Shown here one piece after another: positions 15,130 through 52,241 of a stretch of DNA of 64,000 bases; position 1 is the first letter of the stretch; each line of letters opens with the position of its first letter. The notes under the pieces are model-generated. The model was not told where the DNA came from, searched no databases, and saw only the letters and a program-made list of their open reading frames with translations. The translations under genes were made by a program, and so were the position numbers. This stretch comes from Deltaproteobacteria bacterium (GTDB lineage: Bacteria > Desulfobacterota > Desulfobacteria > Desulfobacterales > JAFDMD01), in contig JAFDMF010000005.1 in assembly GCA_019306065.1 (NCBI GenBank), positions 843-64,842 on the forward strand. Reading direction: 5' to 3'.

Positions 15130-15268
15130 ATTGCCCGAATTATGATTTGTCTGATTAAAGGAGCGTATATATATTGGAATATGTAAAAGGCGGTAGATAG
15201 GTTGCAATGCAATAATATTAGGTTTATAATCAACCAATTTTAAAAAACATTTGAAAGGATGGGGCGCA

Positions 15269-16675
15269 ATGCAAGGAAAATTGACTCGTTTTCGTATAGA
15301 AGGATTGCATAATATCCGCACTATAGATATGTCGATTACTGATAATAAATTGGTATTGGTTGGAGAAAACGGCATAGGGAAAAGCACGGTAGCCAATTTT
15401 ATTTATTTTTTCTTAACTATGCAATGGTCAAGAATGCTTGATTATAAATTTAAAAGCGTTTCGGCGGAGATAGACTCAATAAATTATAATTTAAGCAGAG
15501 ACGACGTAAATAAGCTTGCGAGAAAACAAAATTTTATTAATGAAAGATATGGACGTCGCTTGCCTATATCAATATATAACAAAGTTAAAGAATTAGTTGA
15601 AAGAAAATATAATGATAATAAGATAATGGGGCTAATTTCGGACGAATTCGGCGTTCCTCGCACCATATTAAGACGAGAGATTGAAAATATAAGATTTAGC
15701 AACTCGATTTCCAAAGAATTAAAAAAAGATATAGAATCGGTCAAAACTAAAATAGGAAATAAGGTAATATATCTTCCTACTTATAGAAGAATTGAACAGG
15801 ATTTGGAGATTATTTTGCCGAAATTAGAGATAGGAATAAGAGATTTTGAAGAATACCCAAAAAGGCGTAAAAATACGGGATATACCGAGCTGGTGGAATT
15901 CGGGATGGAAGATGTTGAAGAGACTATACATCGTAAAATGATAGAGATAAAAGAGACAATACGAAAAGATTTGAGCGCGTTAACAGGGGATTATCTTAGA
16001 GATGTTATTAAGGGGGCTTATCAATCTATAGATATTGCTAAATTTAACGAGGTTAACGAATTCTTAATTGCAGATATATTCAAAAGAATCCCGGAAGATA
16101 TTCTACCGCAAGAGGATCAGGAACTTTTAAATAAAATTATTTCCGAAATAAATGAATCAAAAACAATTAACGACAATAATAAAGTTATAGCTCACTTTCT
16201 TACGAAATTGGCAAAGCTCTATCAAAAGCAACAAAATGATGAGCGCGATATACGAGAATTCATAGAAATTTGTAATAAAGGGTATTTGTCCGACAAACGT
16301 TTTATATATGATGATCAGAATTTTAATATTGTAATTCGAGATATTCTTATAAAATCAGGCGTTTTGGAACTGCCTCTTAAAGCGTTATCTTCAGGCGAAA
16401 AGCAGATTGTATCTTTATTTTCTCATCTTTATTTATCTGGCAAATCCGGCTTTTTTCTTATTATTGACGAGCCGGAATTATCGCTTTCCGTGCCTTGGCA
16501 GAAACAATTTTTACCGGATATTCTAAAAAGATGTAACGGATTAATAGCGGTTACTCACTCGCCGTTTATTTATGATAATGAATTGCGACCTTATGCGCAT
16601 TCGTTGGAAGAGTTTATTAAACCTTACGAATATGACCCTGATTTAGAAGAATGGGATGAAACTGCTATAATTTAG
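15269..16675 (+). CDS. ABC/SMC-like P-loop ATPase with a long helical insert (COG3950-like, defence-type)
   Basis: Walker A VGENGIGKST, C-terminal signature LSSGEKQ, Walker B FFLIIDEPELSLS and H-loop AVTHSP. I prefer ATG 15269 (AAAGGA 9 nt upstream) over TTG 15251. Confidence 0.8.
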   Translation: MQGKLTRFRIEGLHNIRTIDMSITDNKLVLVGENGIGKSTVANFIYFFLTMQWSRMLDYKFKSVSAEIDSINYNLSRDDVNKLARKQNFINERYGRRLPISIYNKVKELVERKYNDNKIMGLISDEFGVPRTILRREIENIRFSNSISKELKKDIESVKTKIGNKVIYLPTYRRIEQDLEIILPKLEIGIRDFEEYPKRRKNTGYTELVEFGMEDVEETIHRKMIEIKETIRKDLSALTGDYLRDVIKGAYQSIDIAKFNEVNEFLIADIFKRIPEDILPQEDQELLNKIISEINESKTINDNNKVIAHFLTKLAKLYQKQQNDERDIREFIEICNKGYLSDKRFIYDDQNFNIVIRDILIKSGVLELPLKALSSGEKQIVSLFSHLYLSGKSGFFLIIDEPELSLSVPWQKQFLPDILKRCNGLIAVTHSPFIYDNELRPYAHSLEEFIKPYEYDPDLEEWDETAII

Positions 16676-16686
16676 GAGGCGTTTTT

Positions 16687-17235
16687 ATGTCATATATAAA
16701 TACTCTAAACAGAGCGGCTAAAAGTCCCACAACCGATTTTCATCTTTTAATAACTCAACATCCGTTCCAACGGAATAAATATTATGATTTTTTTACAGAT
16801 GAGGCTGTTTCGGATATTCTTTTAAAAATGGAGCGGCTTGACGATCAGAATTCAAACCTTGAAAAAAAATATACGAATAATTGGGAAAAATCTGTTAGCA
16901 TACTCCCCGAAGAAGAGATGGATCATAAACAATGGAGTGAAAATAATTATTTATGGTCAAAATATCATGAAGATTATTATAAAAAGTTAGAGAAAGTTAA
17001 GCTTACCCTTGTAGATAATGTGGGAATATCGGGAACAAAAAAGTTGGCAATGGAACAAGAGCCTATTGAACAAGAGTTTGTTAAGGAAAATTCGGCTGAT
17101 AAACCTTCTGAAAAAAACGGAATAAATTTTCTTATGTCAATAGCGGGAATGTTTGATTCCGGCGATAAAAATGGCTCGAAAAATATTAAATCCGTCGTAT
17201 CTGAATCCATCTTAAAAAAGTATGGAAAAAAATAA
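16687..17235 (+). CDS. Hypothetical 182-aa protein; possible adaptor or antitoxin for the downstream PIN
   Basis: AGGAGG precedes the ATG. The stop lies 2 nt before the PIN start. I recognise no domain motif, and the C-terminal tail is acidic then basic. Confidence 0.5.
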   Translation: MSYINTLNRAAKSPTTDFHLLITQHPFQRNKYYDFFTDEAVSDILLKMERLDDQNSNLEKKYTNNWEKSVSILPEEEMDHKQWSENNYLWSKYHEDYYKKLEKVKLTLVDNVGISGTKKLAMEQEPIEQEFVKENSADKPSEKNGINFLMSIAGMFDSGDKNGSKNIKSVVSESILKKYGKK

Positions 17236-22420: not shown

Positions 22421-25400
22421 ATGTGCGGAATAGCCGGAATAATACCGTTTAAAAAAATAAAAAATAAAAAATTAAATATAAATAAATTAAACGATTATAT
22501 TGATAGAATTAAAGAGACGGTTGAAGATTTGTCCGTAACCCGGCCGAATATAACAAATTATTTGGGAGGCAAAAAACTACTTAATTCCTTTTTAATAAAA
22601 ACCGGAGAATTGAAACTTCAAAACCAATTTTACGCTCTTTATACAGACGGCGCAGAGATAAAAAAAATAGAAAAAATCGCAGAACAACTTGATAACATAA
22701 TAACATCTCAAACAAATTTTTTTTTAAAAAAAGATTTCGGCTTTGCAAAAAAAGATGCGGAAAAAATATATTCGGCTCTTTTTAAATTAAAAGATATTAG
22801 ATGGGCTTTAACATCGGAACTTATAGATAATATAAATAAAGTAAAAAAGCTTATAACCTATAATAATAATCCGACTTCAATACAGGTTGCCGCATTTAAA
22901 AATATCAACACGGTTTTAAACTCAATAGACAGGCTTGAAGTCCGAGGCAGAGATTCTGCCGGAATATCCGTTATATTTACATACAATAAAAAAAAGTTTA
23001 AAAAATTTCAACTTCTTTTAACCTCGGAAGAAAAAAAACAATTAAATAAACGAACCGAAACAAAACAGCTTTTAAACGGCTCAATAAACGCAAATACCTC
23101 TTCCGATAATAAGACCTCCATAACATTTACCTACAAAATAGCCGCGGAAGTAGGAAAACTCGGAGACAACGTAAAATTTTTGCGCAAAGAGATAATCAAA
23201 GATAATATATTACAAAAAGCTGGCGCGGTTCAATATCTGTACAACAGTATAATATCCCATACAAGATGGGCGTCTGTAGGCGGCATAAACGAATTCAACT
23301 GCCATCCTATAGACTTATACCTTACCGATACAAAAAATAAAAATCAAAATATTAACGTATGCTTAAACGGCGATATAGACAACTATATCCGATTAAAAAC
23401 CGAGTTTGAAAACAACGGCGAAAAAATAGACTCCGATACAAAAATAATACCCCTTTTAATAAAAAAATATCTTAAAAAAACATCCGATATAAAAGAGGCT
23501 TTTCGGCTTGCGGTAAATAATTTTAAAGGCTCTCATGCAATAGCAATGCACACCGATCTTGCCCCCGGAAAAATATTTTTGGCTCAAAAAGGCAGCGGAC
23601 AGGCTCTTTTTATAGGCATAGCGGACGAGCATTACATACCTGCATCCGAAGTTTACGGCTTTGTGGAGGATACCCGGTATTTTATAAAAATAAACTGCGA
23701 ACAGAGTCAAAAAATAAAAAACAAAGAGATAGAAGGGCAGATATTTATACTTGATTCTGACAAAGGAGGAAAATTAAACGGTATAACGGCATCATATTAT
23801 GACGGAGAAAAAATAAAGCTTAATGAAAAATTTATAAAACAGACCGAAATAACCTCAAGAGATATAGACAGAAGAGATTATGCCCATTACTTTTTAAAAG
23901 AAATATCCGAATCTCCGGCATCCGTAGAAAAAACCCTGTTAAACCGATTAAAAACGGATAAACAACAAAAACGAGTAACTTTGGATAAAAAAGCCTTTCC
24001 GCAGACTTTGAAAAAAGCCTTTTTAAAAAATAAAATAAAAAAAATATATTTTGTAGGGCAGGGAACGGCAGGAGTGGCAGCAGTATGCGGAGCAAACATA
24101 CTTCGATATTATCTAAGCAAAGCCTCAATACAAATAAGGGCGGTAAAAGCTTCGGAACTCTCTGGCTTTATACTGTTTGAAAACGACGATAAAGAAAGCT
24201 TAAAAGACACATTAGTAGTTGCGGTAACCCAGTCCGGCACAACAACAGATACAAACAAAACCGTTGATATGGCAAAAGAAAGAGGCGGGTGGACAATTGC
24301 CATAGTAAATAGAAGAGATTCCGATATTACCTTTAAAACAGACGGGGTTTTATATACAAGCAGCGGCAGAGATATAGAAATGTCCGTAGCATCTACAAAA
24401 GCTTTTTATTCGCAGGTTGCCGCCGCCGCTTTACTAGGGCTTTGCATAACATCTGCAGTTGGCATAAGAGAAGAAAAGTTTATCCGAAAAGAGATAAAAA
24501 GACTTATAGAAATACCAAATTCTATGCGTAAAATACTGGCGACAAAAGATAAAATAAAAAAATCCGCAGAAAAATTCGCGCTTTTTAAAACCTACTGGGC
24601 TGTTGTGGGAAGCGGTGCAAACAAGCCGGCGGCAGACGAAATAAGAATAAAACTTTCGGAATTATGCTATAAAACAATATCTTCCGATTACATAGAGGAT
24701 AAAAAACATATAGACCTTTCCGCCGAACCGCTAATAATAGTATGCGCTGCAAGTGCGAGAGAAAACGTAATACAAGATATAGTAAAAGATACCGCAATAT
24801 TTAAAGCTCATAAAGCCACTCCTATAGTAATAACGGATGAAAAAGAACATAGATTCGACGCATATGCGGAAGATGTTTTTTACATACCTACGGTAAGCCA
24901 GCACTTTGCGCCCATATTAAATACCCTTGCCGGGCATTTGTGGGGTTATTTTGCCGCCCTTGCAATAAACGGCGTATCCGAATATCTGTATCAATTTAAA
25001 GAGGATATAAAAAATACAGTAGATAATTTTGTAAAACAAGGGTTAGACATATACGAAATTGTGCAAAAAGAGGAATTCAAAGAAAAAATCACGCTTTTTT
25101 CAATAGATTTCAAACAAAAAAAAGCGGACAAACAATTCCCTTCCATAATAGGATTTAAAACAGCATCCGATCTTACCCTCCTTTTAAAATATCTGTCCGG
25201 CAAGTTAGACGTATCAGATTTTACCTTTGATTTCGATATAGAATACAGCGCGTTAAATATGCTTCAACTTCTACTTAAAAGATTAAACGGCGCTATAAAC
25301 AGATTATCCAGACCAATAGATGCGATAAGACATCAGGCTAAAACCGTCACCGTGGGCACAAGCAGAATCAGTGATAAAATAGAAGGCGTAATATTTGAAG

Positions 25401-25972
25401 AAATAGAAAAACTCGGTATAAAACTATATGGAATTACAGCTAAAAACATACTTGTATTAAAAAACCTGCAAAAAATCATATCCGGCATAAGAGGCTACAT
25501 ACTTTATAAAATAGACGGGTTAAACATAAACGGCAAACCTTGCGACGCTTCTACCATAACCGTTTTGGAAAAAGGCGGAGCGCTTTTTATGCTGCCTTCC
25601 CGCGTAGAAAAAGACAGCAGATTACGAGGAACCAAAAAAACCATAGTGGAGCGGGAAAACGTTTATATAGCAAAAGCAAGATTAGACGGCAGAAACATAA
25701 TAATAATACCGATAATATCTACAAATCCTCAAATTCCGAATAAAATAGAATATCTGCTTTTATTCAACATTACATTTAAAGAAGAGGTTCCGTTAGAGGT
25801 AAAAATAAAAGCATTAGGTCCGAAATTTCAGTTTATAAAAAACATAGTTCAAGAAAGCGTAAATGATTGGAAAGACGAATATATCAATATGGTTCCTATG
25901 TATGACCTATTCGGAAAAACAGCCGAAAAAACAGGGGAGCTTATTATATCAATCATTTCTATGATGAAATAG
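22421..25972 (+). CDS. Giant GlmS-like protein: class II glutamine amidotransferase plus two SIS domains, with large insertions and a C-terminal extension
   Basis: 1183 aa. N-terminal nucleophile MCGIAGI. GATase-II blocks RLEVRGRDSAGI, HTRWASVGG..NCHP and CLNGDIDNY. SIS blocks VGQGTAG / VTQSGTTTDT and VGSGANKPAADEIRIKLSE. Confidence 0.8.
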   Translation: MCGIAGIIPFKKIKNKKLNINKLNDYIDRIKETVEDLSVTRPNITNYLGGKKLLNSFLIKTGELKLQNQFYALYTDGAEIKKIEKIAEQLDNIITSQTNFFLKKDFGFAKKDAEKIYSALFKLKDIRWALTSELIDNINKVKKLITYNNNPTSIQVAAFKNINTVLNSIDRLEVRGRDSAGISVIFTYNKKKFKKFQLLLTSEEKKQLNKRTETKQLLNGSINANTSSDNKTSITFTYKIAAEVGKLGDNVKFLRKEIIKDNILQKAGAVQYLYNSIISHTRWASVGGINEFNCHPIDLYLTDTKNKNQNINVCLNGDIDNYIRLKTEFENNGEKIDSDTKIIPLLIKKYLKKTSDIKEAFRLAVNNFKGSHAIAMHTDLAPGKIFLAQKGSGQALFIGIADEHYIPASEVYGFVEDTRYFIKINCEQSQKIKNKEIEGQIFILDSDKGGKLNGITASYYDGEKIKLNEKFIKQTEITSRDIDRRDYAHYFLKEISESPASVEKTLLNRLKTDKQQKRVTLDKKAFPQTLKKAFLKNKIKKIYFVGQGTAGVAAVCGANILRYYLSKASIQIRAVKASELSGFILFENDDKESLKDTLVVAVTQSGTTTDTNKTVDMAKERGGWTIAIVNRRDSDITFKTDGVLYTSSGRDIEMSVASTKAFYSQVAAAALLGLCITSAVGIREEKFIRKEIKRLIEIPNSMRKILATKDKIKKSAEKFALFKTYWAVVGSGANKPAADEIRIKLSELCYKTISSDYIEDKKHIDLSAEPLIIVCAASARENVIQDIVKDTAIFKAHKATPIVITDEKEHRFDAYAEDVFYIPTVSQHFAPILNTLAGHLWGYFAALAINGVSEYLYQFKEDIKNTVDNFVKQGLDIYEIVQKEEFKEKITLFSIDFKQKKADKQFPSIIGFKTASDLTLLLKYLSGKLDVSDFTFDFDIEYSALNMLQLLLKRLNGAINRLSRPIDAIRHQAKTVTVGTSRISDKIEGVIFEEIEKLGIKLYGITAKNILVLKNLQKIISGIRGYILYKIDGLNINGKPCDASTITVLEKGGALFMLPSRVEKDSRLRGTKKTIVERENVYIAKARLDGRNIIIIPIISTNPQIPNKIEYLLLFNITFKEEVPLEVKIKALGPKFQFIKNIVQESVNDWKDEYINMVPMYDLFGKTAEKTGELIISIISMMK

Positions 25973-40122: not shown

Positions 40123-40422
40123 ATGAATAACCAACTTAAAACAAACATAAAAAAAATCATAACAAACCAACTCGGAAACAAAGTTAAAATATTTCTTTTC
40201 GGTTCGAGAGCAGATAATACGCATACAAAACAATCCGATTATGATATAGGAATAATATCCAATACGCCGATTCCTTTTGATACAATGCAGCGCATCAAAG
40301 AAAATATAGACAAACTTCCTATATTACAGCAAATTGATATAATAGATTTCAAAAGAGTAAACGCCGATTTTTACAATAAAGTTTTATCAAGTGAAAACTC
40401 CGTTATTAAAGAATTGGTTTAA
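40123..40422 (+). CDS. Minimal nucleotidyltransferase (MNT-type antitoxin)
   Basis: FLFGSRADNTHTKQSDYDIGI is the GSx10-DxD nucleotidyltransferase motif. Confidence 0.8.
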   Translation: MNNQLKTNIKKIITNQLGNKVKIFLFGSRADNTHTKQSDYDIGIISNTPIPFDTMQRIKENIDKLPILQQIDIIDFKRVNADFYNKVLSSENSVIKELV

Positions 40423-40451
40423 ATTTTTTTTATTGGACAATATAAAAAGCG

Positions 40452-40479
40452 GTAGAGACGTTGCATGCAACGTCTCTAC
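40452..40479. repeat. PAL28 palindrome, perfect 28-bp copy GTAGAGACGTTGCATGCAACGTCTCTAC
   Basis: Perfect palindrome read directly from the sequence. It sits between the MNT and HEPN genes. Confidence 0.95.
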
Positions 40480-40587
40480 ATAATGCCAAATTTTTAGCCA
40501 ACTATGATTAAATTTTTTTTTCAACGCAGAAAACGGGTAAAATACAAAGTTAGACAGCGGAATTTAAATAGGGAAACAATATTATAA

Positions 40588-40983
40588 ATGGATATAGAGC
40601 AAAAACTTCAATACCTTTTAAACAGTTTCGATAAAGCTTGCAGGCAACTTGAAAAAGCTTTGGCTTTGCCCAAAGATGAATTCATTCGAGATTCCGCAAT
40701 ACAACGTTTTGAATTTACATTTGAATTATTTTGGAAAACCCTTAAAACATATTGCAACATACTCGGATTCAAAGCGGATTCTCCGAGAGCAAGCATAAAA
40801 CAATCCTTTAAAGCAGGAATAATCAAAGACAACCCAATCTATCTTGCTATGCTGCAAGTCAGAAACTTAACCGCCCATACTTACGAAGAAAAGCTTGCCG
40901 AAGAAATATATACAAAACTGCCTTCTTATTCAAAGGCAATGCAGGAGGCAATTGCAAACATTCGTAAAGATTTTTATGATTAA
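40588..40983 (+). CDS. HI0074-family nucleotidyltransferase substrate-binding protein (HEPN toxin partner)
   Basis: RDSAIQRFEFTFELFWKTLK and RNLTAHTY (the HEPN Rx4-6H motif). Confidence 0.85.
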   Translation: MDIEQKLQYLLNSFDKACRQLEKALALPKDEFIRDSAIQRFEFTFELFWKTLKTYCNILGFKADSPRASIKQSFKAGIIKDNPIYLAMLQVRNLTAHTYEEKLAEEIYTKLPSYSKAMQEAIANIRKDFYD

Positions 40984-43542: not shown

Positions 43543-43836
43543 ATGAAATCCGTTGAAGAAATTAAAAATATTATTAGCTCGCAAAAACCGCTGTTAATTA
43601 AAAAGCATAAAATAAAAGAAATCGGAATATTCGGCTCGTATGTAAAGGGAGAGCAAAATAATAACAGCGATATAGATATTCTTGTAAGCTTTGAAGAATT
43701 TCCCGGACTTATTCAATTTATAAGCCTACAAGATGAATTAAGCCAATATCTGGACGCGAAAGTGGATTTGGTAACAAAAAGCGGTCTTAAACCGGAAATA
43801 GGCAAACATATTATAAATGAGGCGGTTTATCTGTGA
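43543..43836 (+). CDS. Nucleotidyltransferase-domain antitoxin (MntA-like)
   Basis: IGIFGSYVKGEQNNNSDIDILV is the GSx10-DxD motif. It shares a GTGA overlap with the next gene. Confidence 0.85.
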   Translation: MKSVEEIKNIISSQKPLLIKKHKIKEIGIFGSYVKGEQNNNSDIDILVSFEEFPGLIQFISLQDELSQYLDAKVDLVTKSGLKPEIGKHIINEAVYL

Positions 43837-44216
43837 TACGAGAATGTATTGATTTTATAAAAGATATAATTAAGTCTATTGAAGATGTTCAAATCTTTGT
43901 AACTGGCTTTAACTTTAATCGTTTCGGTCAAGACATAAAAACGGTTTATGCGGTAATCAGAGCTATCGAAATAATGGGCGAGGCTGTTAAACACATTCCT
44001 AATACAATCAAAAAAGAGCATTCTGATATTCCTTGGAAGCAGATCGCCGGAATGCGCGATAAATTAATTCACGAATATTTCGGCATAGATATGATGATTG
44101 TGTGGAAAACCGCAACTAAAGAGATTCCGAAACTTAAACCTCTGTTTTTACAGATACAGGATATGGAAATAACAAAAAAAAATCGGTTAAAAAAAATAAA
44201 CATACTTCAAGAATAA
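43833..44216 (+). CDS. DUF86 / HepT-like HEPN toxin
   Basis: The Rx4H context MRDKLIHEYFGID and the AIEIMGEAVKHIP helix are typical of DUF86. Confidence 0.85.
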   Translation: MIRECIDFIKDIIKSIEDVQIFVTGFNFNRFGQDIKTVYAVIRAIEIMGEAVKHIPNTIKKEHSDIPWKQIAGMRDKLIHEYFGIDMMIVWKTATKEIPKLKPLFLQIQDMEITKKNRLKKINILQE

Positions 44217-44685: not shown

Positions 44686-45303
44686 ATGAGTAAAAAAGTG
44701 CCTAGAAAAGAGGCGGAGCTTGTAGCTTTGGTAGAGGTTATGATAGGCGGATTAAAGGTAGACCCAAAAATATTTACAGACCCGCCTTTAACCTTCGAGC
44801 AGCTAACCAATGCCATAAACAAAATAAACCTTTCCGTAGACAAAGTGGCTCAAAAAAAATCGGATTATCATAAAGCGATTAAAGAGAAAAACGCAAACCT
44901 TAACGCCTTATACAATAATGCCCGCGAAATTGCGGAATATTGTTATAGAATCTCTAAAAATAATCAAGTTATTCTTGCAAAAGTCGGTTTAACCCCGCGA
45001 GCCGTAAAACAATCCGTAGAGTCGCCAGGACAATGCCGCAGTTTTACCGTAGTAAAACAGGAAATTGACAGCGCAACATTTAAATGGAAAGAGCCTATAG
45101 CAGGCGGGAAAATAAGAGCATACATAATACAGCGCAAAGAATCCGAAGCCCAGTCAGACACATGGATAAATCTATGGACGGAAATCGGCAAAGAAGCGGA
45201 AATAAAAGAACAGTCTACAGACAAAACCTTCGATTATAGAGTGCGCGCTCTTAATAGATCCGGAATAGGGGAGCAGAGCAATACGGTTACTTTAAAATTT
45301 TAA
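44686..45303 (+). CDS. Hypothetical protein with an N-terminal helical region and a C-terminal fibronectin type III domain
   Basis: The C-terminal ~90 aa (FTVVKQEIDSATFKWKEP..GGKIRAYIIQRK...FDYRVRALNRSGIGEQSNTV) follow the FN3 strand pattern. AAAGGAGA precedes the ATG. Confidence 0.6.
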   Translation: MSKKVPRKEAELVALVEVMIGGLKVDPKIFTDPPLTFEQLTNAINKINLSVDKVAQKKSDYHKAIKEKNANLNALYNNAREIAEYCYRISKNNQVILAKVGLTPRAVKQSVESPGQCRSFTVVKQEIDSATFKWKEPIAGGKIRAYIIQRKESEAQSDTWINLWTEIGKEAEIKEQSTDKTFDYRVRALNRSGIGEQSNTVTLKF

Positions 45304-45354
45304 AATAAAAAAATACCGTAAAAAGCAACATTATAAATTTGAAACAACAATATT

Positions 45355-45382
45355 GTAGAGACGTTGCATGCAACGTCTCTAC
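45355..45382. repeat. PAL28 palindrome, perfect 28-bp copy
   Basis: GTAGAGACGTTGCATGCAACGTCTCTAC, 51 nt after the stop of the FN3 gene. Confidence 0.95.
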
Positions 45383-45497
45383 CGCAATTAATAACTTGCA
45401 ATCTTCCCCTTTCTTCCTTTCCTCTCCATTTTCCCCTTGTAAACTCATCATAATTTTATTATTATCGTAGAAAAATAACCCATTTTACAGGTAAAAA

Positions 45498-48400
45498 ATG
45501 AAAAAGCAAAAGAGTAAAAAAACAGCGACAAATATCATCTTAATAATTATAATCTTCTTATTTTGCGGTTTTTATTTAAAAAAAGCATGCGAGGCATCGG
45601 ATGCAATAAATCCGGAAAAAACAAAAGGCTTTGTTTATTACAAACAAAATGTCGCTCCCATATTAGCAAAAACATGTTCTTCAAAGGATGAAAACGGGGT
45701 TTATGTATGTCATGGAAAAAGCGGAGCGGAAGCGGAAAAAGAGGAATACGCAAAGTTTCATAATGCTCCTTATCAAAATTCTCAGTATTGCCAAACCTGT
45801 CATACTCAAAAAAAGGGGAAATTTTCTTTTATACTTGATTCCCAAGGTAAAATATCAACTTCGGCTCAATACATACTATCTTATATAGAAGCGAAAAAAA
45901 AGGCGGTTCATAATAAAATACCGTTTGCAAAGATATTAAGAATGCCTCTTGTGGGGCAAGCCGGCGGATTCGGACTTTATCATAAGGGCGGAGAAATATT
46001 TAACGGCACATCGGACCCGCAATACAAAAAACTTGCGGAATGGGTAAGATTGGAAAACGAAGATATAAAAAAGGTTCTTGCTCAAAACAAAACCGAACAA
46101 TTTTTTGCAAAAAAAGTTTTGCCTGCATATGCAAGAAACTCATGCTTTAATCCGTCCTGTCATATATTTAATCACAGCTCCTTTTTGCCGGATGCGGGAA
46201 TGGAAACCGAAGATTTAAATACCAAAATAGAAAACAGATTTTCTTTAGAGCAAATCCGGTTCAACCGAATGACTTCAAAAGGTTTGATACAGCATAATGT
46301 TTATTTGACCGGAGATGTCGAACAAAGCAGAATTTTAAAAAAAAACATACCTATTAATCAAGGCGGAGTTCTTCACAGAGGCGGAAACGATCAGTTTTTT
46401 ACCGGACCGGACGATCCCGATTATAAAATATTAAAAGAATGGCTTATGATGGAGCGCGAAGATGCCGTATCAAAACTTAAAACAAACGGCAAAAAAATCA
46501 AGCCTTCTATGGTAGGCAAGCTTCAAGGGATAGTATTTGTCCGAACAAAAACAAAAAATTACAGAAAATATCTTGACGTAGGAAAATATATGCCAGGCGC
46601 GGATTTATATCTGTTAAAATTAAAAGAAGGGGAGACGCTACAAAATACTACAAGCAAGCCTATAAACCTTACCGCCCGTTTTCGTAAAGGCAAAGAGGCG
46701 GATATAAGAGAGCCGGATATAAGATACGACGGACAAGCAATTTTATTTGTAATGAGAATAGGCGAAGCCGATAATCTCAATATATATGAACTTACGGCAG
46801 ATTCAAACCTTGATTTTTCAAAAGGAACATTAAGAAAGCTTACTTACGGACACAAATATATAAACGGAATAAAGATTCATTATACGGATCCTACTTATGT
46901 TCCCGATCCTGCGGACAAAAATGCGGCGGCAGGGGGATATAACCTTGATAAAGCGGATATAGTATTTGCTTCCAATATAAGCGGATATATGGTTCAAAGC
47001 GAAGAACGCGGCATAGTAGGGGAGGCGGATGCGGGAGATACAACAACCATAATAGATTTTGACAGACCCGAAACGGATAATACATTTGTAGGAAAAAGAA
47101 TCTATATAGTTGACGGAACAAACAAAGGAGAACGGAGAACAATAATAGATTTTAAAAATCGGCTTTTTACTCAAGAAAAACGCTCTTACATAACCGTAGA
47201 TCGCCCCTTTGCAAAACCTATCGATAATTCTACTATATATGTAATAGAGCGGGATAAAAACAGCCAACCCGGATTTCTGCCTTCATATTCGGTATATGGC
47301 ATAAAATATCCCGAGCCATTACAAGAAAAAGAGAATTATAATCAAACCCTGTCCCGAATCACCTACGGAATAGCCCAAGAACTCGATATTAGCGTCCGAA
47401 CCACCGGCGAAGTTTTTTTTACGGGGCAGCGCTCATTTACGGATAAATACGACAGACCTATCTTTCATCTTACAAGCTGCAGAAGACATCTTGATACAAG
47501 ATTTAGTTTTCCCACACATCAGGGAAACAGATCGGAAGTTATAATATATGCGGATAACTACGAAATGCCAAGCGGAATAGATATACACGTAGGTATGGAA
47601 CCTCGCAATTTATGGGAAGGAGGCAATTTAAACGTATCGGATCATCAGATGGGTCCAGGGCTTGAAGCAAGAAACCCTAATGATTTTTCCACCGGATATT
47701 TTGACGAAAACAAAATGCCCGTAACCGAAAATGTCAAAATATCCAATACAAGATACAATTTCAAAAATAAAAAACAGCCCTCTCATACAAGATTCATATT
47801 TAAAAAAATATCCCTTTTCCCTTTAAGAGGACCCAATGCGGTATCTCGAACAGGATATTCTCCAGGCGGAGTATTTAAAGATTCTACGCCGCTTCCAAAC
47901 GGAGACATTCTGGTTTCACATTCCGATAAACCAATAAATAATCTCAATCCGAAAGCAAACCCGGATTTTGATCTATACATTATAAAGCCGGATCCAAGCT
48001 TTCATTCCGAAGGCGGAAAAACAAACCCGAAAGTTAAAAAAGTAAAAATAGCCGCGGCATCAAAAGCCGGAACAAGCGAAGTTCAGGCATATCCGCTTTA
48101 TATAAGACTAAAACCGAAAATAAATGCGGCAAAAAGACCAAAGAAAGAACATCTTATAGGACCCGCTGGAAAACCGGAAGACAGCCGTCCGGCAGTATAT
48201 CTTGAAAGAAACTACCTTTTAATAGATGCAATAATGGATAATCCGTCTCCGGTAGGCAAAAATACCGCATATCCTGCAAATCCGATGACGGGCGCAAAAA
48301 TCGCTCCCATAGATGAAGTTAAATATGTAAGAATGATAGAAGTTATGCCAACAAAGCCCGATCTTGCCAAAAAAGTGGATACAAATAAAATAAAAAACAA

Positions 48401-49153
48401 AGATCCGCAAAGCACGCAGTTTGCGAAGCCCCCCTTGAAAGCGACGGCTCAATATACATAAAAGTTCCTTCTAAAATATCTATGGTAATACAAAGCCTTA
48501 ATGCGGATAAAATGGCTTTGCGGCAGTCTGCCAGACTTTATTTCTTTGCTCCTAACGAACTATTTACAATATCTCCGTCAAAAAGCGAAACCTTCCAAAC
48601 CTGCGGAGCATGTATGGGAGCTATGTCCGGAGACCCAAAAAAACTATTCGGACCCATAAACAAATTTACAGGGCAGACAAAAGTAAAGGCAATAGCAAAT
48701 GCAAACGGAAACCCAAAAGAATACGGAATAAAACCGGAACAAAGAATTGCAATGGATTTTGTAAAAGATATTCAGCCCATATTAAATAAAAACTGCGTTG
48801 CCTGCCACAACGGAAACAACGCCCCTACAGGCTTATCCTTTGGCGACAAAAAAACCTATTATTACAACGAGGCTTATGAAAACCTAATGCAACTTCAAAA
48901 TCCGCAAAGCGGATGGTATTCTCATAAAAAATATATAGAAGAAAGAGGCGCCCTTGCAATAAAAAGTTATTTAATAGAAAAGGTTTACGGCAAAGAACTT
49001 AAAGCGCCGCGTAAACTTTCCGGAGATACTCCGCATCCGAGTATGGAGCTTATAAAAAAATACAACTTAAACATAACTCCGCTTAACCAAAAAGAAAAAC
49101 TTACTCTGGTAAGATGGGTAGATATGGGCGCGGCGTTTATGGGCGGAGAGTAA
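45498..49153 (+). pseudogene. Very large exported protein with repeated Cys/His (cytochrome-c-like, PSCyt-type) modules and a TolB-like beta-propeller region; two ORFs joined by an apparent 1-nt frameshift in a C6 run
   Basis: ORFs 45498-48461 and 48482-49153. The second frame is open back to 48389 and reads ...APLESDGSIYIKVPSKISMVIQSLN across the junction. The N-terminal anchor is hydrophobic. Motifs: YCQTCH, CVACHNG, CFNPSCH and FVKDIQPILNKNC. Confidence 0.6.
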
Positions 49154-49214
49154 AGGAAGCGAGATACAAAAGACGAAATATTAAAATCTAATTATAAACA
49201 ACGGAATTATAACG

Positions 49215-52200
49215 ATGATAAAAAAAATAAAACCTCAAAAAACAATTTACATAACAATGATAATAGCTGCCGTATTAATTTTAAGCTGTATTCCGCAAAA
49301 TAAATCCGGCGGCAAAGATAACGAAAAGTTTTTAAAAAATTCCGAATCCGTATCATATCCTTCGATATACGGAATTTTAACAAGCGATAGATGGGCTTAT
49401 TCGGCTCAATACAAAAAAGCCGATTTAACCCCCGTAAAAAATAATAATCCGTATCCGGAACCTCAGCCTCATCGCGATCATCCTCAAAGTCTGGCGCTAT
49501 CTGCAGACGGAGTAAAACTATACATAACCCTTACGGGAAACGAAGCCGAACCCGGAAACCAAATTGCGGTTTTTGATATTACATTAAAAAAAGTAATAAA
49601 AAAAATAAAAGTAGGTTTAAGTCCATATTATCTTGCTCTTCATCCTAACGGAAAGTTTTTGGTAGTTATAAACCGATTTTCCAATTACGCCTCTGTTATC
49701 AATACAAAAACCGATACGGTAACAAACGAAATACCTCTTGATTTTTACTGCCAAGAAATCCTGTTTAATAAAAAAGGAACAAAAGCTTACGTTAGTAACA
49801 GATACTTAAATCAAATATTTGTGTTAAACATAAAAGCCAAAAAAAATCTACTTAAAGCAAAAATACAATTGCTCGGCGGATTTGACGAAACAAGCTTCAA
49901 ACAAAAAATCTATCCGATTTTAAACAAAACCTGCGGAGTTTCAAACTGTCACGCGGCAAATACGGGAGGTTTTTATGCAGGCAAAAATTATCTTGAAACC
50001 TTCTTTTCCGCAATCGAAAACTCGACTGCCGGAGACGCGAATAACAGCATCTTATTAAAAGCGATTATATCAACCGAAGAGGGTGGATTTGCAGATGATT
50101 TAAGCGGAAACAACTTTCACGCTGCAGGAACGGTAGTATTTAAAAAGGATAATGCCGAATATAAAAGGATAGAAAACTGGATAAATACCGCAAAACAGGG
50201 ACCCGGTATTCCCGTAGGAAATTTCGGTTCCAAACCTGCAAGCCTCTATCTAAGTAAAAATGAAAAATATCTGTATGCGGGCAACATGGGAACCCAAGAT
50301 ATATCCGTAATAGATGCCGATAAAAACGAAGAGGTTACGGGAATATACATGCAAAACATAATATTAGATATTTGCGGATATTACGATAAAAAAATCGAAA
50401 AAGAATTCTTAATAGCAGGCTCAATGGGAATAGGGTTTGGCGCGGCAAAAGAAAGAGACTTCTTTGGAGGAGAAACCGAAAGCCCAAACAATCCCGCAGC
50501 TCAATATTCGGTTTTACGAGATATAGAAACTACCGAACCCCTGCCTATAAATCAGCAAAAAATACTCGGAAAATTCGACGCCATAGACGGAACTGCAGCA
50601 TATAAAATGACAGACATTCAAAACGATATAACCTTAATTGACGCCAAAACCCTCAACATACCCAAAACCGTAAAAAACCGAAACTATTTACAATATGCTC
50701 TTCTCGCCAATCGTTACGAAGCCCATAAAAACTGGGTAAGATATACCTCCGATTCCGCGGAAATCCTTCCTCATGAGATAAGCGGAGACATACCTCCGGA
50801 ACTTCAAAGAGTTATAGGCGCATATCCGGTTTGCGTAAAAACAAATCAAAACAGGTTATATACATTAATGATGGGAACATACCAGCTTGTAGAATGGAAA
50901 ATAAACCCGAATGCAGAAGAATCTTCCGAATATCTTATACCCATAAAAATGTATAAAACCGGAATAATGCCAAAAGACATAGCAATAGGCAAAAAAGGAA
51001 CAATTGCCGAAAATCTGCTTTTTGTAAGCAATTTTTTAGGGGAAACCATAAGCGTTATAAATAAAAAAACAGGCATTTCAAAAGAATATATAGTAGGCGA
51101 TCTAACCCGTCCTTTTCCGGATACAAACGCGGAACGCGGAGAAGTATTTGTAAATACGGCAGTATTTTCGGTTGATAAAGATACGTCTTGCACATCCTGC
51201 CACATAAATCATACAAACGACGCGAGAGGCTGGGGAGCAGGGCAGGCAATAGCTCAAATGAAAGACGGAAAATTTGTAAACGGCGGACTTTTGGGAATTC
51301 CGCAAATAAAAAACCTATTTGCAACTCAGCCTTTTTATTTTGAAGGAACCCATACATGCTTTGACGCTCAATTTGACGACGCAAGAGAACATGTAGCGCT
51401 TCAAGGATTTTTGGAAAAAAGTCCAAATGGTGATTTTACAAATATTAATCATCCAATTCCCGCAAACCAAAGAAAAAAAGAGCATGAAGAGATACAAGAT
51501 AAAATGTCAACAGATTCATTCGGAGAAATCTATGCGGATTTAAACGAACGCCGAGATGAAATGATAAGACAACTTAGTATGAAATATTTCGGCAAAGCTT
51601 ATAATTTTCGAGATTTTCAGAGATTTATAGGCGAATTTCAGGCTGCGGAAACAAGACTTAATCCAAACCCTTACGATCAAAAGAATCCATCGGTTATAAG
51701 AGGAAAAAAACTGTTTAACAGATTAGATACAAGCTGCATTGTTTGCCATTCCGCACCGGAATTTACAAATAAAAGCGAAAAACTTTTTAACAACAACGAG
51801 AGAACCCTTCCTGCTGTAGTAAGTTTTACAAAAAGAGAAAAAGCATTTACATTGGTAGGACCGCATTGGATGGATAAGGCAAACAATTATAAAAGAGATC
51901 TGGAATACTGGGAAGAAGGACGAGTAGAAAGAAAACAAGGAAACGTTACCGTATTTCAATTAAGAGGACTTTTCGACAGACCCTTTGCATTTTTACACAA
52001 TGGAAGAGCCGTATCCGTAAGAGAAGCAATAGCGGCTCCGGATCATTACTCTTTAAGAAAATTTAAATACCCCGTATTAAGAGGCGGAGAAAACGTCCGA
52101 AAAAACCGCGCGGAACGCGGATTTAATGAATTAAGCTTTATAGAGGAAAAAACTTACATGATGGATACTCATGGCGGAACTTCCCATCTTAATACCATTC

Positions 52201-52241
52201 AAATCGGAGATTTGGAAAATTTTTTGCTTTCGATAGAGTAA
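49215..52241 (+). CDS. Lipoprotein-like exported protein: YVTN-type beta-propeller repeats plus a C-terminal di-haem cytochrome-c-peroxidase/MauG-like domain
   Basis: The signal peptide has a lipobox-like LILSC. Propeller repeats include LYITLTGN...IAVFDI...YYLALHPNGKFLVVINRFSNYASVINTKT. Haem motifs are SCTSCH and SCIVCH, and the CCP-like tail is LRGLFDRPFAFLHNGRAVSVREAI. Confidence 0.65.
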   Translation: MIKKIKPQKTIYITMIIAAVLILSCIPQNKSGGKDNEKFLKNSESVSYPSIYGILTSDRWAYSAQYKKADLTPVKNNNPYPEPQPHRDHPQSLALSADGVKLYITLTGNEAEPGNQIAVFDITLKKVIKKIKVGLSPYYLALHPNGKFLVVINRFSNYASVINTKTDTVTNEIPLDFYCQEILFNKKGTKAYVSNRYLNQIFVLNIKAKKNLLKAKIQLLGGFDETSFKQKIYPILNKTCGVSNCHAANTGGFYAGKNYLETFFSAIENSTAGDANNSILLKAIISTEEGGFADDLSGNNFHAAGTVVFKKDNAEYKRIENWINTAKQGPGIPVGNFGSKPASLYLSKNEKYLYAGNMGTQDISVIDADKNEEVTGIYMQNIILDICGYYDKKIEKEFLIAGSMGIGFGAAKERDFFGGETESPNNPAAQYSVLRDIETTEPLPINQQKILGKFDAIDGTAAYKMTDIQNDITLIDAKTLNIPKTVKNRNYLQYALLANRYEAHKNWVRYTSDSAEILPHEISGDIPPELQRVIGAYPVCVKTNQNRLYTLMMGTYQLVEWKINPNAEESSEYLIPIKMYKTGIMPKDIAIGKKGTIAENLLFVSNFLGETISVINKKTGISKEYIVGDLTRPFPDTNAERGEVFVNTAVFSVDKDTSCTSCHINHTNDARGWGAGQAIAQMKDGKFVNGGLLGIPQIKNLFATQPFYFEGTHTCFDAQFDDAREHVALQGFLEKSPNGDFTNINHPIPANQRKKEHEEIQDKMSTDSFGEIYADLNERRDEMIRQLSMKYFGKAYNFRDFQRFIGEFQAAETRLNPNPYDQKNPSVIRGKKLFNRLDTSCIVCHSAPEFTNKSEKLFNNNERTLPAVVSFTKREKAFTLVGPHWMDKANNYKRDLEYWEEGRVERKQGNVTVFQLRGLFDRPFAFLHNGRAVSVREAIAAPDHYSLRKFKYPVLRGGENVRKNRAERGFNELSFIEEKTYMMDTHGGTSHLNTIQIGDLENFLLSIE

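Follow-up and report, generated by a model that had tools for sequence, protein, structure and literature searches.

The hydrazine synthase-like locus

Within the 64,000-nucleotide stretch analysed here (the window; part of contig JAFDMF010000005.1 of a metagenome-assembled genome (MAG) from a Desulfobacterales-like bacterium) is a region, positions 44686–52241, occupied by four open reading frames (ORFs), all on the + strand. It holds a gene for a distant homologue of the α subunit of hydrazine synthase (HZS), HzsA, which is broken by a frameshift, and next to it an intact gene for a distant homologue of the β and γ subunits, HzsB and HzsC, fused in one protein of 1008 amino acids. An earlier reading made without database searches (the sequence-only reading) could not assign this pair to a characterised system; both genes are now assigned, as homologues of HZS subunits. 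The features of the region are:

44686–45303, + strand: ORF of 205 amino acids with a marginal C-terminal FN3 domain, without signal peptide; not part of the module
45355–45382, no strand: perfect palindrome with a 12-bp stem and a 4-nt loop, from a scan for terminator-like elements and the sequence itself
45498–48461, + strand: N-terminal part of the HzsA-like gene, 987 amino acids, ending in a TAA caused by the frameshift
48417–48418, + strand: junction of a 34-nt deletion, from DNA alignment with the related loci L005 and L006 and from protein mapping
48419–49153, + strand: C-terminal part of the HzsA-like gene, in another frame; the called ORF is 48482–49153, 223 amino acids, without signal peptide
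49215–52241, + strand: fused HzsB/HzsC-like gene, 1008 amino acids, with a propeller, a di-haem domain and a lipobox

The β-γ-like protein

At the start of the 1008-residue protein is a signal peptide with the lipobox LILSC (residues 21–25), which follows the pattern [LIVMFWSTAG]2-[LIVMFYSTAGCQ]-[AGS]-C after an n- and h-region. Signal-like N-termini are found throughout both families; the lipobox is present in few β-γ-like homologues (8 of 41), making this feature lineage-specific. Below the signal is a YVTN β-propeller (residues ~57–630; TIGR02276, E 3e-15), and interrupting the propeller is a helical cytochrome insert (residues ~222–330) with the CX4CH motif CGVSNCH (49932–49952). The lipobox pattern and the YVTN repeats had both been recognised in the sequence-only reading.

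The C-terminal part of the protein (residues ~635–1008) is a di-haem domain of the HzsC, cytochrome c peroxidase (CCP) and MauG type, with the haem motifs CTSCH (51189–51203) and CIVCH (51735–51749), and with Phe709 (51339–51341) at the position of γ-His144 of HZS and of the CCP tryptophan. Chance does not explain the three haem motifs: every one of 41 homologues, the most distant of them at 42% identity, keeps their residues (C240/C245/H246, C659/C662/H663 and C841/C844/H845).

Among NCBIfam models, the N-terminal part matches YVTN repeats and hydrazine synthase β, and the C-terminal part weakly matches hydrazine synthase γ, MauG-like and MbnH models. A profile of the 41 homologues finds HzsB (5c2v_B, E 3.6e-22) and HzsC (5c2v_C, E 7e-8) in the PDB. 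The AlphaFold (AF2) model (predicted local distance difference test score (pLDDT) 81, predicted template modelling score (pTM) 0.86) consists of a propeller with a helical insert (residues 225–325 in the model) that bears the CX4CH motif, followed by the di-haem domain, and its best PDB fold match in Foldseek is 5c2v_B (E 1.1e-15, template modelling (TM) score of 0.71).

The sequence-only reading had described the C-terminal domain as a di-haem peroxidase or MauG-like domain and suggested a redox or peroxide-handling module; the latter would be a bacterial di-haem CCP-type system for peroxide detoxification. Its description holds for the two CxxCH motifs and the CCP/MauG type of domain, but the Pfam CCP_MauG model (PF03150) scores 17.8 bits, short of its gathering score of 25.6, and HzsC is the better match: with the C-terminal domain alone, HzsC is found at E 3.8e-10 and di-haem peroxidases only at 0.016–0.2. 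Weak CCP_MauG, MbnH and MauG-like matches, an extracytoplasmic location and the CCP-like motifs IPQ.RNL..QPFYFEG and LRGLFDRP..FLHNG would all suit a peroxidase. The tryptophan between the haems that is essential in CCP and MauG is, however, Phe in this protein, and CCP systems come without a 1000-residue propeller fusion, an HzsA-like partner or the FGE-type partners described below. We consider peroxide handling improbable.

The α-like protein

Encoded by the 987-residue ORF are a hydrophobic signal or anchor (residues 1–33) and three cytochrome-like modules, of the CX10CH (CSSKDENGVYVCH, 45675–45713), CXXCH (CQTCH, 45789–45803) and CX4CH (CFNPSCH, 46143–46163) types. Below these modules is a TolB/HzsA-type β-propeller (~46500–48200), and starting at ~48315 is the HZS_alpha middle domain. 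Continuing in the second frame are the rest of the middle domain, the motif CGACM (48602–48616), a candidate for the α-I haem position of HZS, and the C-terminal c-type haem domain with CVACH (48794–48808; α-II type). The hydrophobic N-terminus and the repeated F..V.PIL..C..CH modules reported in the sequence-only reading are present, with each quoted motif in its place. The Cys/His motifs are nearly invariant in 29–30 homologues. CxxCH-type motifs are kept in homologues of both genes, and none of the outcomes that the sequence-only reading had named as fatal to it was found.

The HZS_alpha middle domain (PF18582) is detected in the frame-2 fragment (E 2.2e-7) and also in intact orthologues, and positions 659–790/804 of the NCBIfam model hydrazine_alpha match the C-terminal 137 residues (E 1.5e-11). 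The sole convincing PDB match for a profile of 30 family members is HzsA (5c2v_A, E 3e-27), in four colinear pieces that begin in the propeller and reach into the C-terminal haem domain. For P0132, a homologue without the break, the AF2 model (pLDDT 74, pTM 0.80) has 5c2v_A as its best PDB fold match in Foldseek (E 6.9e-24 over 982 columns) and TolB as the next (8e-6), which accounts for the impression of a TolB-like propeller in the sequence-only reading. Between the middle domain and the α-II domain there is no Cys motif other than CGACM; at this candidate α-I site the motif is CxxCM in 35 sequences, which form the window's subclade, and CxxCH in the 21 sequences of a sister subclade.

The break in the α-like gene

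The 987-residue ORF stops at a TAA (48459–48461), whereas the frame that takes over is already open at 48389. In the loci L005, from a Desulfobacterales MAG, and L006 both parts correspond to one intact protein of 1229 residues: the 987-residue ORF (87% identity with L005) aligns to residues 1–972, and the second frame aligns to residues 983–1229, with homology that begins upstream of the ATG at 48482. A stretch of 34 nt found in both L005 and L006 is missing from the window between 48417 and 48418, and the reading frame consequently changes partway through the HZS_alpha middle domain. The 'first large gene' of the sequence-only reading is thus two ORFs in different frames (45498–48461 and 48482–49153), the second of which contains CGACM and CVACH. 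As assembled, the C-terminal haem domains of the α-like protein would not be exported.

The deletion junction lies within an inverted repeat, CGCAAA..TTTGCG (48404–48427), and this position is compatible with hairpin-mediated slippage or with an amplification or assembly artefact. Relative to L005, the ratio of nonsynonymous to synonymous substitution rates (dN/dS) is 0.13 upstream of the break and 0.10 downstream of it, and the β-γ-like gene likewise has 0.13. Owing to these low values on both sides, the break is either very recent or an assembly error. In L086, from another, unrelated metagenome assembly, the α-like gene is also split (930 and 328 residues; L086 5043–8781) by an independent frameshift ~85 codons earlier, which indicates that such breaks recur and that their site is not conserved.

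A programmed −1 frameshift was also considered, as an in-phase A_AAA_AAC heptamer (48392–48398) stands just before the frame change. It was rejected because frame-0 homology to L005 (KIKNKDPQS) runs beyond the heptamer, and the 34-nt deletion lies further on; the split α-like gene of L086 is, moreover, broken elsewhere.

Comparison with true hydrazine synthases

The domain architecture of HZS is present in the pair: the propeller, HZS_alpha middle domain and C-terminal c-type haem domain of the α subunit, split by the frameshift in the window, and the β propeller and γ di-haem domain in the 1008-residue protein. The scores for the NCBIfam equivalog models are 10–30 times below their cut-offs (hydrazine_alpha 42.9 against 800 bits, beta 44.3 against 560, gamma 17.3 against 625 and BC 38.2 against 1250). 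Residues of the γ subunit were compared by recovering most of the HzsC sequence through alignment with a closer paralogue and aligning it to the family. γ-His144, which in HZS lies near haem γ-I, is replaced by Phe in 23 of the 24 family members aligned, the window protein (F709) among them; all 14 compact paralogues have Trp there, as in CCP and MauG. γ-Cys165, the source of a third covalent haem bond in HZS, corresponds to a gap in all 24, with no conserved extra Cys.

HzsA-like genes in ten phyla have been taken as evidence of anammox (PMC11828985), and a genuine HZS would likewise give this Desulfobacterales-like organism anammox potential. HzsA, HzsB and HzsC are indeed the best solved-structure matches, and the α gene adjoins a fused β-γ gene, as in Scalindua-type fusions. 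Set against this reading are the equivalog scores, the absence of γ-His144 and γ-Cys165, the CxxCM motif at the candidate α-I site and the gene order, with the α-like gene upstream of the β-γ-like gene in the window and the reverse in anammox bacteria (PMC12758564). In addition, no hdh or hao gene was found within the window, its annotated ORFs include no HAO/HDH-like multihaem protein, and the carriers of the family include aerobic Opitutaceae, Myxococcota and Gammaproteobacteria. A genuine HZS is extremely improbable; judged by its predicted residues the pair is not a hydrazine synthase, the HZS-specific ones being missing.

Distribution and gene neighbourhood

The β-γ-like family is found in Desulfobacterales, Elusimicrobiota, Myxococcota, Planctomycetota, Opitutaceae, Gammaproteobacteria, Cloacimonadota and other groups. 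Among 50%-identity representatives, the β-γ profile finds 754 proteins at E ≤ 1e-30, with about seven near-full-length family members; the rest of the top-150 list is made up mostly of fragments and of long, repeat-rich propeller proteins.

Neighbourhoods were counted over 82 non-duplicate loci, the window included. Directly upstream of the β-γ-like gene in 35 of them is an α-like gene, bearing out the co-occurrence of the two large genes that the sequence-only reading had proposed to check. Upstream in 38 other loci (L001 7348–9917 and 37 more) are instead a cytochrome c of ~260 residues and a compact HzsBC-like gene of ~580 residues, never together with an α-like gene, giving two paralogous β-γ-like proteins in tandem. 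The compact protein (hydrazine_BC, E 1.9e-61, 208 bits) is a much closer relative of HzsBC than the 1000-residue protein that accompanies it.

Following the β-γ-like gene in 71 of the 82 loci are genes of the FGE/EgtB/PvdO family, usually two. Clusters of the CxxCM type also hold chorismatase-like (FkbO/RidA), DAHP-synthase and ResB/CcsA genes; ResB and CcsA, which form a System II cytochrome c synthase, immediately precede the CxxCM-type α-like genes of L012 (3511–5870) and L086 (2868–5056). Clusters of the CxxCH type also hold an RnfD–Complex1_51K fusion, ApbE and ferredoxin, of which RnfD-51K and ApbE are confined to this type. The linkage of ResB/CcsA to the CxxCM/CX10CH subclade suggests specialised haem attachment, and the RnfD–NuoF module of the sister subclade suggests that electrons are supplied from NADH.

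In L030 (8311–9264), from a Thiotrichaceae MAG, the gene immediately before the β-γ-like one encodes an EgtD-like histidine methyltransferase (Methyltransf_33, E 6e-112) and has ApbE and an FGE-type gene beside it. A link to ergothioneine through this gene was considered and set aside, as it is a singleton among the loci.

The near-obligate linkage to two FGE/EgtB/PvdO-family genes, together with the frequent chorismatase-like and DAHP-synthase genes, would also fit a maturation enzyme of the MauG/MbnH kind, which would oxidise residues of a partner (the FGE-type or the α-like protein) or build a small-molecule cofactor from a chorismate-derived precursor and would have no free inorganic substrate. 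The MauG family offers precedents for such protein-directed chemistry. The MauG tryptophan is nevertheless absent, no peptide or protein emerged as a candidate precursor, and the NADH-linked RnfD-51K module of CxxCH-type clusters suggests a steady electron flow. We regard this explanation as unlikely, but it remains a serious rival.

None of these accessory genes (FGE, chorismatase-like, RnfD-51K, ferredoxin, ResB, CcsA and DAHP-synthase) is found by tblastn in the whole 64-kb window, and genes for cytochrome c maturation were not found there either, as the sequence-only reading had also stated. Among loci whose downstream sequence exceeds 1 kb, the window and L011 are the only two without FGE genes. 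An FGE orthologue (MBW1649436) is encoded on a 95-kb contig of what is apparently the same MAG as the pair (MBW1649581/583). Elsewhere the identical protein belongs to an FGE/chorismatase-like/FGE cluster; in L088 (1773–7445) is such a sub-cluster, the first protein of which (276 residues) is a longer-start version of the FGE protein of the MAG. From these positions we infer that the system of the window's lineage seems to be split over two loci. The L088 sub-cluster is itself interrupted by an AAA_15/DUF4435 pair (OLD/abortive-infection-like).

The pair could be a decaying relic in the window's genome, with the α-like gene a pseudogene and the pair bereft of its partners. The frameshifting deletion, the C-terminal fragment without a signal peptide and the 64 kb devoid of FGE, chorismatase-like, ResB/CcsA and Rnf-like genes are what decay would leave. 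Yet dN/dS is as low after the break as before it, the β-γ-like gene is intact, what appears, by its adjacent accession range, to be the same MAG has an FGE/chorismatase-like/FGE cluster on another contig, and MAG assemblies can carry such indels, the unrelated L086 being independently frameshifted elsewhere. Decay of the pair is a possibility that we take into account but hold to be less likely than not.

A proposed multi-haem enzyme

We think it likely that the two genes encode the α-like and fused β-γ-like subunits of an exported, HZS-like multi-haem enzyme, from a clade present in many non-anammox phyla, whose product is not hydrazine and whose α-like gene is broken in the window. The signal-like N-termini, the conserved haem c motifs and the propeller and di-haem architecture agree with the 'extracytoplasmic redox module' of the sequence-only reading, and we infer that the pair is a periplasmic multi-haem redox enzyme; the 'peroxide-handling' part of that proposal is not specifically supported.

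In the mechanism that we propose, both proteins would be exported by the Sec system, the β-γ-like one becoming lipid-anchored in the window's lineage, and c-type haems would be attached in the periplasm. By analogy with HZS and the CCP/MauG superfamily, the CTSCH haem, the first of the C-terminal di-haem domain, may be catalytic and act on a small oxidised N- or O-species, and the CIVCH haem, the CX4CH haem of the propeller insert and the haems of the α-like subunit may serve as an electron relay. The two proteins would form an exported complex whose α-like middle domain (CGACM) may offer a second site for an intermediate to move to, as in HZS, to give a product other than hydrazine. In relatives, the enzyme would work with the two FGE/EgtB-type proteins and further with chorismatase-like, DAHP-synthase and dedicated ResB/CcsA proteins or with an NADH module of the RnfD–NuoF type.

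Several points weigh against this reading. Single-sequence similarity to HZS is low (38–43 bits), part of the HzsB signal comes from the generic YVTN propeller, and the N-terminal 300 residues of the α-like model are of low confidence. When aligned to HzsA, HMMER profiles of both subclades skip the stretch from the middle domain to the α-II domain; because this stretch is left unaligned, the equivalence of CGACM with haem α-I is one of position. The substrate proposed for the family is a guess, haem attachment at the CX4CH, CX10CH and especially CxxCM motifs is a prediction, and it is from HZS that a tunnel and a hetero-oligomer are presumed. With the accessory genes absent and the α-like gene broken, the module may also be inactive in the window.

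More tentatively, and with doubt outweighing confidence, the window's clade may represent an uncharacterised periplasmic system built on the HZS scaffold. Its parts would be the α-like and β-γ-like proteins and two proteins of the FGE/EgtB type, in many cases joined by a chorismatase-like protein, a DAHP-synthase and a dedicated ResB/CcsA. Its α-I CxxCM motif might hold a Met-ligated covalent haem matured by the dedicated CcsBA, or form a Cys/Met metal site, and its two sites might be coupled by a tunnel in a reaction that does not produce hydrazine.

The surroundings of the pair

Upstream of the pair is the 205-residue ORF, whose marginal fn3 match barely clears the Pfam cut-off (26.5 bits, with 25 required; E 7.6e-6) and which has no PADLOC or PHROGs match. 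The sequence-only reading had called its product a surface-type FN3 protein and grouped it with the pair. The first label is unsupported, because a signal peptide is absent. Membership in the module was ruled out: tblastn finds no homologue of this ORF in 85 related loci, the gene in the same position of the syntenic locus L005 is unrelated to it, and the palindrome stands between it and the pair. The palindrome, GTAGAGACGTTG-CATG-CAACGTCTCTAC, sits in the 194 nt that separate the α-like gene from the FN3 ORF and is likely to be an operator or to mark a transcription boundary, perhaps as a terminator.

Farther upstream of the module are pseB/pseC and toxin–antitoxin pairs of the MntA/HepT type, and downstream of it are xseA, ispA and dxs. 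Within the pseudaminic-acid (pseB/pseC) glycan locus are two such pairs (43543–44216 and 40123–40983), made up of nucleotidyltransferase (NTase) and HepT-like or NTase-substrate-binding proteins with PADLOC PDC-S09 matches. Also in a glycan region of the window (22421–25972) is a GlmS-like protein of 1183 residues with GATase and SIS domains, about twice the usual length. At 15251–16675 is an AAA_15/AAA_21 ATPase with PADLOC matches of the AriA/PtuA type (E 4e-22), and directly after it is a 182-residue ORF without a match (16687–17235); the two are possibly a PARIS/Septu-like defence pair.

Relation to known systems

HzsA-like genes outside anammox bacteria have been read in two opposite ways, as evidence of anammox in ten phyla (PMC11828985) and as distant, functionally different homologues (PMC12758564). 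The clade described here fails the HZS residue tests and yet keeps the two-subunit architecture, which supports the view of distant homologues and cautions against the label hzs for genes of this kind. Our results agree with those of Hagglund et al. 2025 (PMC12758564) and argue against the broad anammox reading in PMC11828985. A new enzyme system on the HZS scaffold, if confirmed, would bear on the evolution of HZS and on the dispute over HzsA-like genes outside Brocadiia. Handles on the role of an ancestral HZS-like scaffold come from the pair of FGE-type genes, from the upstream partners that exclude each other and from the association of ResB/CcsA with CxxCM-type and of RnfD–NuoF with CxxCH-type clusters, and cultured carriers of the family exist (Pelagicoccus, Actomonas aquatica and Opitutaceae). 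The value for the window's own genome is lower, because its α gene is broken and the partners are elsewhere.

The closest solved structure is the HZS of 'Ca. Kuenenia stuttgartiensis' (HzsA, HzsB and HzsC; PDB 5C2V), whose subunits are the top matches for both window genes. The c-haem domain of the α-like protein shares the signature DF.RDIQPIL..C..CH, and the β-γ-like protein shares the order of a YVTN propeller and a di-haem domain, with CxxCH at both haems and the C-terminal signature HGGTSHL..DL..FL. The window proteins differ in being longer by ~400 (α-like) and ~300 residues (β-γ-like): the α-like protein has ~330 extra N-terminal residues with the three cytochrome-like modules, and the β-γ-like propeller carries the CX4CH cytochrome insert. 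In the window clade Phe replaces γ-His144, γ-Cys165 is lacking and the site at the α-I position is CxxCM; the α-I site of HZS has CxxCH, Tyr591 as an iron ligand and a Zn site, the corresponding stretch in the window being unaligned at the residue level. The α gene is upstream rather than downstream, and the carriers are not anammox bacteria.

Dedicated System II cytochrome c synthases serve non-standard haem motifs in other bacteria, such as CcsA1 of Wolinella for the CX15CH motif of MccA and NrfI for CxxCK. Similarly, ResB/CcsA genes are embedded in clusters with α-like proteins of the CxxCM/CX10CH type and never in those of the CxxCH type; unlike in those systems, no such genes lie in the window. 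With the CCP/MauG/MbnH superfamily the β-γ-like protein shares a domain with two CxxCH motifs and the duplicated motifs '..P.LRN....P(Y/F)(F/Y).(D/E)G'; it differs by its marginal matches, by Phe in place of the inter-haem Trp and by the fusion to a propeller of ~600 residues.

Nearest in organization are the HZS-like pairs of α and fused β-γ genes described in non-anammox bacteria in 2023–2025 (PMC10732223, PMC12758564), among them the hzs-like genes of Phycisphaerae UBA1845 (PMC10732223) and the distant HZS homologues of clades I–IV, with α upstream of fused β-γ and key residues not conserved (Hagglund et al. 2025, PMC12758564). A literature search found no paper that links HZS-like genes with FGE-type genes, which also go unmentioned in the text and the searchable supplementary text of PMC12758564. 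Clades I–III have FG-GAP/CRTAC1 and ABC-transporter neighbours, Trp at γ-His144 and a canonical α-I CxxCH (PMC12758564). The window clade has instead, in relatives, two FGE-type genes as neighbours, Phe at γ-His144 and CxxCM, and next to the pair in the window there is no FG-GAP/CRTAC1 or ABC substrate-binding gene. As in the non-anammox pairs, the two genes of the window are adjacent and co-oriented, the α-like one directly upstream of the fused β-γ-like one, both with export signals, and they encode predicted periplasmic haem proteins in which the key residues of HZS are not conserved; the pair adds a variant to these recently recognised HZS-like gene pairs.

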